A DNA stretch of 64,000 nt, taken from Blastococcus saxobsidens DD2. Its GTDB lineage: Bacteria > Actinomycetota > Actinomycetes > Mycobacteriales > Geodermatophilaceae. Both the position numbers and the translations under genes were made by a program. The DNA is taken from contig NC_016943.1 in NCBI RefSeq assembly GCF_000284015.1, positions 225,541-289,540 of the forward strand, written 5' to 3'. The notes beneath the pieces were generated by a model that worked only from the letters and a program-made list of their open reading frames with translations, had not been told where the DNA came from and ran no database searches. Positions 14,585 through 17,353 of the stretch are shown here, one piece after another; positions within the stretch are counted from its first letter, which is position 1, and the number at the start of each line of letters is the position of its first letter.

Positions 14585-17353
14585 TCATGTCCTCCCGCCG
14601 CTCCTCCGGCTCACCCGCGCCGCGAAGACACCCGCCGAGTAGCCGTTGTCGATGGTGCTCACCACGACCCCCGGTGCGGAGGAGTTGAGCATCGTCATGA
14701 GCGCCCCCAGGCCACCGAACGCGCTGGGCTGCCCGGCGGAGGTGGGCACGGCGACCACGGGGACGTCGGTGAGCGGGCCGATCGCCGTCGCCAGGGCGGC
14801 GTCCATGCCGGCGACCACCACGAGGCAGTCGGCGACCAGCGAGCCGTCGTCCAGCAGGGCGTGCACCCGCCTGGGGGAGACGGCGTCCAGCCGCGTGACG
14901 GCCGTACCGGCCACCCGCGCGACGAACGCCACCTCCGCGGCGACCGGGGCGTCGGCGCCACTCGCGCAGAGCACGGTGGTGCGGCCGAGCGGCTCCGGCA
15001 CCGGGCCCACCGCTGCGGCCATCGCCGTGGCGTCCAGAGTCGTGGCCGAGCCGTGCTCGGCGGCCAGCGCCACCAGCGTCTCCGGTGCCGCGCGCAGCAC
15101 GAGCGCCGGGCGGTCCGGGTGCTCGCGCCGCGCCTCGCGGACCAGCGCCTGCACCTGCTCGGTGCTGCGGCCGGTGGCCCACACGACCTCTGGCTCTCCC
15201 GCGGCGACGGGCGTGGGCCCGGTCGGCTGCGGGAACCGGGGGAGCGGCCCGAGCAGGGGCTCGCCGGGCCGGTCGCTGCCCAGCGGCGGGTGCGGCGGAT
15301 CCAGCAGCGGCGCGAAGCCGGTGGCCTCGTCGCGCACGGCGGCCAACGCCCGGCGGGCGTCGTCCAGCGGGGTGGCAGCCACCGGCACCGGGACGGCGTC
15401 GGGCACGGGGGCGGGAGCGGCCGGCGCATCCGGTGCACCGCCCGGGGCGCGGGTCTGGGTGAGCGCCGAGAGCCGTACGACCTGGTCCCGTCCGCTGCGC
15501 TTGGCGTCGTAGAGCACGCCGTCGGCCGCGGCGAACAGGGTCTTGCGGTCGTCGCCGCGGGTGGCCGAGGCGATGCCGGCGCTGATGGTGACCGGCACGT
15601 CGAGGCCCAGCTCCACCCACGGGTAGCGGGCGACCGCGGCGCGGATGCGCTCCAGCGCTCGCTCGCCCTGCTCGGCGGTGGTGTCGGGGAGCAGGATGAC
15701 GAACTCGTCGCCGGCCCAGCGGCACACCTCGTCGGTGTCGCGGACGCCGGCCACCAGCAGCTCCCCGACCACGCGCAGCACGGCGTCGCCGCCGGGATGC
15801 CCGATCGAGTCGTTGATCGACTTGAACCGGTCGACGTCGACCACGGCCAGGGCCGGGACGCCGCCGGCGGCCAGCAGGCCGTCGAGCCGCGCCTCGGCGT
15901 AACGCCGGTTCGGCAGGTGCGTGAGCGGGTCCTCGTAGGCCTGCCGGCGCAGCTGGCCGGCGGCCCGCTCGGTCTCCAGCAGGCTCTTGCGGCGGCCGAA
16001 CAGCTCCACCCAGCGGGTGCGCCGCTCGTCGACCCGGTCCAGCTCGTCGGCCAGGTAGGCCTGCAGGTAGGGGAGCGCCCGGCCGGCGTCGTCGAGGTCC
16101 GTTTGCAGCGTGCACAGCTCGCGCAGCGCCGCCCGGCGCAGCCGGGGCAGGCCGTGCTCGGTGGCGAGGCCGAGCGCGGCGACGAGGTGCTCGTCGGCGG
16201 CCCGGCCCTCCCCCTGCCGGCGCAGGGCCCGGCCCAGCGCGAGTCGCGCCGAGGCCAGCCGGTCCCGGTCGGCGGCGGCCGCGGAGAGCCGGACGGCGGC
16301 GCGCAGCGGCCCGGTCGCCGCGGCGTGCTCGCCCAGGCCCACCAGCGCCCAGCCGTGCACCACCTGGGCGGCCACGATGCCGGCCGCGTCCGGGGGCAGC
16401 TGCGCCAGGGCCTGCTCGGCCAGCTCGCGGGCCTCGGTGAAGTAGGGGGCGGCGGAGTCGGGCGCTCCGTCGTCGAGCAGCCCCTCGCCGAGCTCGGCGC
16501 ACAGCTCGCCGAGGCGGGTGGCGGCGACGGCGACGAGGACGTCGGGGTCGGTGTCCTCCGGGCCGAGGACGGCGGGGTCGGCGGCGGCCGCCTGCGCCGT
16601 CTCGTGCGCGCGCCGCTGGTAGTCGAGCGCGAGCGGCATGAGCTCGAGGTCGGCCAGGACGCCGGCCAGCGTGCCCAGCGTGTCGACCAGCAGCGCGCTG
16701 GGCGGGAGGGCCGGGTCGAGCAGGCTCGCGGCCTCCACGGCCTCGTCCATCGCGGCGTCGATCCGCCGGGAGAGCAGTTCGATGCGGGCGTGGCGGGCGA
16801 GCCCCGCGGCCCGCTGGAGGTCGTCGTCGGCGGCGTCGAACGCGGCCTTGGCCGAGCGGACGAGGGCGATGGCCAGCGCGGCCCGGGAGGCCGACTCCGA
16901 GCGCGGGTCGGCGTCCTCGCGGGAGGGCGCGCCGTTGCCGTCGATCAGCTCGGCGACCCCCGCGTGCAGGTCGAGCGCCGGCTCGGCGGGGGAGTCGCCG
17001 GCCACCGGATCGCCGACGAGGGTGAACCCGGCGACGCGCAGCCGGCGCACCAGCAGCTCGGCGCGCAGCGTGTCCGCCCACGCCCGGCCCAGCGACGTCG
17101 GGGCACCGTCGGGAACGTCGGCGGTCGGCACGGCCGCGACGTACGGCGACGGGTCCCGCTCGACCCCGGCGAGCAGCTGCTCGGCGTCGTCGAGCTGCCA
17201 GTTGCTCAGGGCGGCGGTCACCCGGTGGTGCAGGGCTCCCGGTGGCACGAGCGCACTGTGCATGTCGTTACTGACCGTGTCGAGCACGTCACTGAGAACG
17301 CGCCGTCCCCCGTCCGTCGTGTCCCTCCCGTCCCACGCGTGCGGGAAGCTCAC
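14585..17353 (-). CDS. TPR-like / GGDEF (AGDEF variant) / LarB-like fusion protein (922-aa uninterrupted ORF)
   Basis: N-terminal ~450 aa of helical repeats. GGDEF domain (LTHLPNRR ... [12 protein letters not shown] ... [11 protein letters not shown]), approx 15430-15950. Pro-rich linker. C-terminal ~235 aa PurE-fold LarB-like domain ([14 protein letters not shown] ... [44 protein letters not shown]), approx 14585-15290. One frame with no stop. larC lies directly downstream. Confidence 0.7.
   Translation of the reverse strand: [922 protein letters not shown]

Follow-up and report, generated by a model that had tools for sequence, protein, structure and literature searches.

What is encoded by a gene in which a signalling protein runs, in one reading frame, into a homologue of LarB, and has LarB thereby been placed under signalling control or been made into something else? 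The open reading frame (ORF) that raises this question lies on the minus strand at 14585..17353 of a 64,000-nucleotide stretch of Blastococcus saxobsidens DD2 (assembly GCF_000284015.1, contig NC_016943.1, positions 225,541 to 289,540), the whole of which is referred to here as the window. It encodes 922 amino acids (aa) from a GTG start, coordinates including the stop codon. The reading that we favour, to which we give a probability of roughly 0.68, is that of a TPR-sensor diguanylate cyclase carrying a repurposed pseudo-LarB on a disordered tether. A first-pass annotation made from the DNA letters had described a single frame with three modules, and this architecture was confirmed: from N to C terminus there are a TPR-like region, a GGDEF domain (aa 472–624) and a LarB-like domain (profile NF033503, aa 718–916), with the quoted motifs in place (RWAGDEF at aa 545–551, a 14-residue motif at 721–734 and PVVAVPTS...DNGYSAG across 865–908).

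The C-terminal domain (aa 718–922; 14588..15202, minus strand), termed LarB*, was delimited with the NCBIfam LarB profile, alignment to Protein Data Bank structures and Foldseek. When the profile search suggested in the first-pass annotation was run, the LarB equivalog model NF033503 matched with an E-value of 2.6e-39 over positions 9–208 of its 209. Its score of 135.1 bits is under the curated whole-protein cut-off of 175, which is why NCBI calls the protein only a 'diguanylate cyclase domain-containing protein'. The Pfam AIRC family scored 31.3 bits against a cut-off of 30, and the sequences of the L. plantarum LarB structures matched at E 2–4e-29 (phmmer to 7mj0, E 4e-29). Homology to LarB was thus upheld; the label of a LarB 'enzyme domain' was not, given the score of 135 against 175 bits and the loss of Cys221 and many other invariant residues.

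To describe these losses residues are numbered as in native L. plantarum LarB, verified from the alignment, and a canonical set of 81 LarBs from bacteria and archaea is compared with 116 full-length orthologues of the fusion. LarB carboxylates and hydrolyses nicotinic acid adenine dinucleotide (NaAD). Its Cys221 reportedly forms the cysteinyl-pyridine intermediate named in the title of the 2021 report by Rankin and colleagues; we take this cysteine to be the nucleophile that attacks the pyridinium ring at C4, and the acidic residue at position 180 to be the proposed general base. Cysteine occupies position 221 in 81/81 canonical LarBs and in none of the 116 fused orthologues, in which the residue is Ala (90), Thr (17) or Ser (9); the B. 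saxobsidens fusion has S892 (14678–14680), and A, S, T, G, N or P is found in fragments from the fused clade. The next-nearest relatives recovered in the same search, 28 stand-alone LarBs that retain the cysteine and are 52–59% identical, all carry MLN(S/A)CAPG. Cys843 was considered as a relocated nucleophile and rejected, because canonical LarBs already have cysteine there more often than any other residue.

Thirteen further positions are replaced in the fused clade (K57, T79, G125, T126, G153, V154, A155, G156, H158, R159, Y204, G205 and G235); in canonical LarBs conservation is 95% or higher at 12 of them and 89% at H158. Several are now variable, R159 being A, S, T, G, P or D, Y204 being Q, A, S, H or T and A155 being S, G, P or A, and such free variation at once-invariant sites points to lost constraint rather than to a new fixed catalytic solution. 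Asp151, invariant in canonical LarBs, is A824 in the B. saxobsidens protein, an additional loss since most fused members keep D151. Not every change need be damaging: Glu180 is replaced by D851, Asp already being the majority state (94%) in canonical LarBs, so that an acidic residue is kept at 180, and the replacement of Ser127 by A800 would be harmless by itself because S127A LarB of L. plantarum is active and has been used preparatively (PMC13524815). From these alignments the domain is judged, with high confidence, to be degenerate at the canonical LarB active site, and with moderate confidence it is predicted to have lost LarB (NaAD carboxylase/hydrolase) activity.

The same domain is maintained under purifying selection and is not a decaying tail. 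In an AlphaFold model built from the 116-sequence alignment the predicted local distance difference test score (pLDDT) exceeds 90 for aa 713–920, and Foldseek aligned the domain to the LarB crystal structures 7mj0, 7mj1 and 8soq with target-normalised template modelling (TM) scores of 0.82–0.86 and a root mean square deviation of 2.5 Å. Across the 116 orthologues 37 positions are invariant and many more near-invariant. Near-invariance in the fused clade includes D128, E134, D151 (in most members), D/E180, PTS199-201 and D231-x-G233, and new invariant residues specific to the fused clade have appeared, particularly at aa 727–772. Median ratios of nonsynonymous to synonymous substitution rates (dN/dS; Nei-Gojobori, 91 pairs) were 0.34 for the LarB-derived domain, 0.34 for the TPR-like region, 0.23 for the GGDEF domain and 0.69 for the linker; these values are compared only from part to part because the extreme bias in G+C content at third codon positions (GC3) inflates their absolute size.

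That linker is a Pro/Ala-rich disordered tether (aa 631–717; 15203..15463, minus strand), delimited by pLDDT and hypervariability: pLDDT is below 50 for aa 624–712, and the tether is hypervariable in both length and sequence, with 48% identity in addition to the highest dN/dS of the four parts. Within it lie a predicted helix (aa 663–676) and the motif GFAPLL..PPLG..EPLLGP, near-invariant in the 116 sequences, which align to the canonical LarB N-terminus, a helix followed by LGFAxxDxHRxxRTGxPEV, here split by a Pro-rich insertion. By this alignment the tether contains a remnant of the LarB N-terminus.

Upstream of the tether the protein has the build of a diguanylate cyclase. The N-terminal helical-repeat, TPR-like sensor region (aa 36–465; 15959..17248, minus strand) was delimited from a weak match to Pfam TPR_MalT (25.7 bits against a cut-off of 45), from AlphaFold and from Foldseek. 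The model of its approximately 430 residues consists of regular helix-turn-helix pairs with pLDDT above 90 for aa 210–440, and Foldseek searches with the modelled aa 1–465 recovered the TPR proteins LGN, Pins, Rap and KLC at E 6.5e-6 to 5e-4 with low TM scores of 0.3–0.5. TPR-like modules usually bind peptides or proteins. The region ends in a modelled stalk helix of 42 residues (aa 423–464; 15962–16087, minus strand), and the stalk helix together with the GGDEF domain matched the structures of SiaD and DgcB.

The GGDEF domain itself (aa 466–630; 15464..15958, minus strand) was delimited by Pfam and by alignment to PleD. It matched Pfam GGDEF over the full model (1–161) at aa 472–624 with 125.4 bits against a gathering threshold of 23.8 (E 2.4e-36). 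Every Mg- and GTP-binding residue of PleD, which we take to be D327, K332, N335, D344, R366, K442 and R446, is identical in the alignment, the sole change being Ala for the first Gly of the GG(D/E)EF signature. The resulting A-site AGDEF (15701–15715, minus strand) is preceded, at a distance of five residues, by an I-site of the RxxD type (R538-D-T-D541; 15731–15742, minus strand), and A547, G548, D549, E550, R538 and D541 are invariant in 116/116 orthologues. With a mean identity of 87% and the lowest dN/dS, this is the best-conserved part of the fusion, and the earlier suggestion that the GGDEF half is a degenerate partner is not borne out by intact GTP- and Mg-binding residues and I-site. 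From its sequence the GGDEF domain is likely to be an active cyclase.

The fusion is, with high confidence, a genuine gene conserved across the Geodermatophilaceae, the one family of actinobacteria, from soil and rock, to which it is restricted. A tblastn search with the 922-aa protein returned, in 13 other genomes (nine Blastococcus, two Modestobacter, Klenkia soli and one metagenome-assembled genome of Geodermatophilaceae), a single high-scoring segment pair in a single frame over approximately aa 1–910 at 63–83% identity, with no truncated fusion across the three genera. In at least 120 protein clusters, formed at 90% identity, PF00990 and PF00731 occur together, and the fusion is also present in Goekera deserti. 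GC3 of the frame is at least 0.90 throughout the junction and linker and continuous across the junction. In databases the fusion clusters are named 'diguanylate cyclase' only, apart from one labelled 'Circadian phase modifier'. The NCBI product for B. saxobsidens, 100% identical in sequence, is 887 aa long with a start 35 codons further in, and because GC3 is 0.82 over the first 40 codons and aa 1–35 are disordered in the model, the true start may likewise lie approximately 35 codons downstream of the GTG.

Gene order indicates where the LarB-derived domain came from. In the window the order is pheA, a TPR-GGDEF paralogue, the fusion, larC, three inserted genes and GDT1. Canonical actinobacterial loci have larB-larC-GDT1, with a 4-bp overlap of larB and larC in loci L072 and L076 and pheA beside the cassette in L072, and the fusion sits at the larB position of that order. 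The upstream anchor pheA (prephenate dehydratase, Pfam PDT and ACT; 19207..20154, plus strand) holds the same relative position in L072 and all related loci. At the other end GDT1 (8890..9513, minus strand, identified by Pfam), encoding a GDT1-family cation/proton antiporter, is the third member of the ancestral cassette; it directly follows larC in canonical actinobacterial cassettes (L072:9915–10499, L075:13618–14208, L076:12174–12770) and has been kept by every Geodermatophilaceae locus of sufficient length, including those that have lost larC, making the antiporter a candidate metal-transport partner of the Lar pathway. In a neighbour-joining tree of 14 fused domains and the 81 canonical LarBs the fused domains were monophyletic and sister to the canonical actinobacterial LarBs, on a stem of 0.156, internal branches having a median of 0.019 and a maximum of 0.165. 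On the strength of synteny, the tree and the LarB N-terminal motif in the linker, we conclude with high confidence that this domain is derived from the larB that already stood at the site, as part of an ancestral larB-larC-GDT1 cassette.

Immediately upstream of the fusion, the paralogous TPR-GGDEF gene (17427..19097, minus strand; 556 aa) also has AGDEF and shares approximately 38% identity with the first two thirds of the fusion protein. Because it occupies this position in every related genome, the two genes probably form an operon.

Downstream lies larC (12925..14142, minus strand), encoding a 405-aa nickel-insertion cyclometallase that appears intact (Pfam Ni_insertion 433 bits; LarC1 195.9 against 90; LarC2 131.3 against 50) and has a dN/dS of 0.29. 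Equivalents of E104, H108, H116, H118, H160 and H53 of M. thermoacetica LarC are present; in that enzyme mutants of H53, H108, H116, H118 and H160 are less active, those of H108, H118 and H160 nearly abolishing activity, and E104 is the proposed nucleophile (PMC13510736). The first-pass annotation was right that the next gene is a full-length larC but not that it directly adjoins the fusion: the two are separated by a 442-bp spacer filled by five copies of an 84-bp tandem repeat (14159..14579; 98% identical), which interrupts the 4-bp larB-larC overlap of canonical cassettes. A related array of approximately four copies, 77% identical, lies at the same place in B. xanthinilyticus (L009:10690–10990); B. 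tunisiensis has one copy-like unit, and other relatives have 19–120 bp or an inserted gene. An Rfam scan of the window gave no match to the array, its predicted fold was insignificant (z = -1.06), and no inverted repeats and no promoter- or terminator-like sites were seen in it. The repeat was rejected as a recognised regulatory RNA on the absence of an Rfam match and of a significant fold, and as an N-terminal extension of LarC since that frame has no start codon and the LarC profile begins at residue 4.

Across 17 related loci the fusion is independent of larC, which is eroding within the family. It follows the fusion in L002, L003, L006–L010 and L013 (74–87% identity) and lies 4.5 kb further off in L004. 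In the other eight it is absent, frameshifted or degraded: the copy in L005 (Blastococcus sp. TF02-8; 10788–11984) lacks H108, H116, H118 and H160, larC is frameshifted in L001 and L071, and L011, L012, L014 (Klenkia soli), L015 and L070 lack the gene cleanly but keep the fusion and GDT1. The deletions affect Klenkia soli and a Blastococcus subclade.

Other components of the pathway were sought nearby. As the first-pass annotation had stated, Pfam scans of approximately 55 ORFs and a phmmer scan of all ORFs for LarE found neither larA nor larE in the 64-kb window, and none of the 20-kb related loci showed a second larB. The 120 best matches to a profile derived from 11 actinobacterial LarE sequences belonged to Solirubrobacterales, Gaiellales and similar groups and are uninformative for Geodermatophilaceae; cluster look-ups of the nearest canonical LarBs led to Pseudonocardiales and Stackebrandtia, not to Geodermatophilaceae; and the supplements of the LarA-superfamily survey and of the NphT paper contained nothing on the Geodermatophilaceae genera concerned. 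Nickel-pincer-dependent aldo-keto reductases were reported in 2026 (PMC13524815). The window encodes an aldo-keto reductase at 41898–42821 (plus strand), 28 kb from larC, whose best solved relatives are ordinary members of that family; with these relatives and at this distance its candidacy as a nickel-pincer user found no support.

In the reading we favour the fusion would be a cytoplasmic signalling protein of Geodermatophilaceae in which a TPR-like sensor is followed by the stalk helix and then by the GGDEF domain; the cyclase would dimerise via this helix, most likely make cyclic di-GMP (c-di-GMP) and be feedback-inhibited through the RxxD I-site. In the simplest history a TPR-GGDEF gene would have entered the locus ahead of the larB-larC-GDT1 cassette already there, and the loss of its stop codon would have let its reading frame continue into larB. 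After fusion the LarB part would have evolved fast, losing the Cys nucleophile and much of the active-site signature and keeping its fold under purifying selection, so that it would now serve the cyclase as a module without catalytic activity, held by a disordered tether of approximately 90 residues. Its likely roles would be those of an oligomerisation or clustering platform, or of a module that binds either a partner protein or a ligand resembling a nucleotide, and larC would be a leftover of the old cassette that still looks functional in B. saxobsidens. GGDEF domains must pair for activity, and LarB and PurE folds are said, in the work of Rankin and colleagues from 2021, to assemble as octamers. 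As a floppy tether would transmit allostery poorly and these folds are octameric, clustering, oligomerisation or partner binding is favoured; confidence in any specific scaffold or binding role, which is argued by analogy, is low.

Several observations weigh against this interpretation. D128, E134, D151 (in most members), D/E180 and D231 are still near-invariant in the fused clade, and on account of these five retained acidic or polar positions part of the old pocket may still bind or catalyse. An intact larC under selection implies that the organism makes the cofactor and would need LarB activity from some source. NbdA has an AGDEF domain that is held to be degenerate or inactive, but VCA0965 of V. 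cholerae, also with AGDEF, actively synthesises c-di-GMP (PMC3974145), and because of these two precedents cyclase activity is held to be likely but not certain.

The most far-reaching reading builds on the retained pocket: the LarB-derived domain may be a receptor that still binds a pyridine (di)nucleotide such as NaAD or nicotinamide adenine dinucleotide (NAD+), or a nickel-pincer intermediate, through D128, E134, D/E180 and D231. We regard this as possible, though well short of probable. If true, NAD or nickel-cofactor status would be coupled to c-di-GMP output in rock-dwelling actinobacteria, and the domain would be the first Lar enzyme to have been converted into a sensor, as well as a new GGDEF input domain.

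A rival explanation, which we consider unlikely, concerns the other half of the protein and holds that AGDEF has silenced the GGDEF domain, leaving a c-di-GMP receptor that acts via the I-site, so that the protein would not be a cyclase but an effector or scaffold. It draws on the Ala that replaces the first Gly in all 116 orthologues and in the upstream paralogue, on NbdA and on the invariant RxxD motif. The alignment of all remaining catalytic, Mg- and GTP-binding residues with those of PleD, the product formed by VCA0965 and the strongest constraint on any part of the fusion all argue for a working cyclase instead.

That the domain is a working LarB using chemistry independent of Cys221, with nickel-pincer-cofactor synthesis coupled to and gated by the TPR/c-di-GMP module, seems to us improbable. 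It would account for the ancestral larB position beside an intact and selected larC, for the retention of D128, E134, D/E180 and D231 and for the lack of a second larB in the 20-kb loci, and the active L. plantarum S127A variant (PMC13524815) shows one of the replacements to be tolerable. It is opposed by the sub-threshold NF033503 score, by a position 221 that varies among A, T and S in the 116 orthologues, by the 13 further near-invariant residues that are gone, some to variable states, by a tether that would be a poor allosteric coupler and by the persistence of the fusion where larC is deleted or degraded. The degenerate LarB residues and the retention of the fusion in genomes without larC likewise tell against the sensor-gated cofactor synthesis proposed in the first-pass annotation.

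It is very improbable that the LarB-derived tail has no function and is decaying as a passenger of the cyclase. Missing catalytic residues, a long stem branch and a hypervariable region just before the domain are what such decay might leave, but the domain is as constrained as the TPR sensor, with a dN/dS half that of the linker, has its 37 invariant and many near-invariant positions, is not truncated once in three genera and has a confidently predicted fold. An artefact in which a frameshift or missed stop conceals two genes, a possibility raised in the first-pass annotation and apparently favoured by separate, overlapping calls of the GGDEF and LarB-like parts in B. brunescens CP141261 (L001) and two ENA contigs, can be dismissed given the uninterrupted frame in 13 independent genomes and at least 120 clusters, the unbroken GC3 periodicity and the frame changes that also break pheA, MMPL and larC in the assemblies with a split fusion, marking the splits as general frame errors. 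In L001, L070 and L071 many unrelated genes have frame breaks, indicating error-prone sequence and not biology, and these frame errors explain annotations of 'stand-alone AIR carboxylase family protein' of 300–350 aa.

Elsewhere in the window an ORF at 31028–32974 (plus strand; 648 aa) combines a chemotaxis methyl-accepting signalling domain (aa 72–244) with an SPFH/Band 7 domain (aa 364–533), an unusual architecture. Further signalling genes encode a GAF-PAS-GGDEF protein (9593–11068, minus strand), an EAL-domain protein (42841–44082, minus strand) and a PAS-GAF-GAF-SpoIIE phosphatase (44031–46874, plus strand). The segment 21500–22800, at 63% GC compared with approximately 77%, encodes HTH_17 and PIN_3 proteins and looks like a toxin-antitoxin pair, possibly horizontally acquired. 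A mechanically predicted ORF of 1106 aa at 26310–29630 (minus strand) matches IMP dehydrogenase only at aa 643–1101, and the first 640 codons probably represent an open frame that runs on too far, as is usual in DNA with 77% GC. Two HAD-hydrolase genes lie at 29263–30986.

The proteins are already in databases as 'diguanylate cyclase'; what is new is a GGDEF protein with an undescribed domain. As the first-pass annotation had supposed, no published description of a LarB-GGDEF fusion, nor any other link between LarB and GGDEF, was found among the papers searchable, and the literature on Blastococcus with nickel or c-di-GMP yielded nothing relevant. To our knowledge this is the first apparent pseudo-LarB. 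LarB, LarC and LarE serve as genomic markers in the discovery of nickel-pincer-cofactor enzymes. The locus suggests that a LarB homologue beside larC can be catalytically degenerate, in which case presence/absence surveys based on Pfam AIRC or a loose LarB criterion would mis-score the whole family. For c-di-GMP biology it provides an undescribed C-terminal partner of PurE/LarB fold on a conserved, duplicated TPR-GGDEF pair, and for the study of gene fusion a clean, datable case that would have been followed by loss of catalysis under ongoing purifying selection, with intermediates of the old pathway visible in sister genomes as larC intact, degraded or deleted.

Among known systems on the signalling side, PleD, WspR, SiaD and DgcB likewise have a coiled-coil or stalk helix leading into a GGDEF domain with GTP-binding residues and an RxxD I-site, and the AGDEF signature is common to VCA0965. 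The fusion differs from such stalk-helix cyclases in having as its input a TPR-like domain of approximately 430 aa and not a receiver domain; a C-terminal domain of PurE/LarB fold on cyclases of this kind was not found described in the literature searched. PurE (N5-carboxyaminoimidazole ribonucleotide mutase or aminoimidazole ribonucleotide carboxylase) shares the flavodoxin-like core, in keeping with the Pfam AIRC score just over its cut-off. The domain was not accepted as a PurE since TIGR01162 scored 19 bits, far below its cut-off of 149.6, and LarB structures matched much better (E 1e-29) than PurE structures (8e-5).

LarB itself, as seen in solved structures, has the same two-subdomain fold and is 37% identical over 200 residues, with D128, E134, AG177-178, an acidic residue at 180, PTS199-201 and D231-x-G233 in common. 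The fusion differs in having Ser for Cys221, Ala for Ser127 and Ala for Asp151, in the replacement of K57, T79, T126, the 153–159 loop and Y204-G205, in a 'GFAxxDxHRxxRxG' motif split by the Pro-rich insertion and in forming the C-terminal part of a 922-aa signalling protein. Nearest outside the fused clade, at 49–59% identity, are stand-alone actinobacterial LarBs (P0085; Stackebrandtia WP_324797074.1, P0125; Pseudonocardiales PZS29339.1), which occupy the same chromosomal slot between pheA and larC/GDT1; they are unlike the fusion in being unfused proteins of 230–300 aa with a 4-bp larC overlap, and in keeping MLNSCAPG and the other invariants. LarB is fused elsewhere in nature too, as LarB-LarC (P0126, P0168, P0253) and LarE-LarB (P0154), but in those proteins LarB is joined to other enzymes of its own pathway, and P0154 retains the LNSCAPG cysteine motif. 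Among the ten longest proteins that were scanned with Pfam, taken from the best 150 representatives of a library of 1.84 billion proteins, the Geodermatophilaceae clade (P0121, P0181) is the only one with a GGDEF partner.

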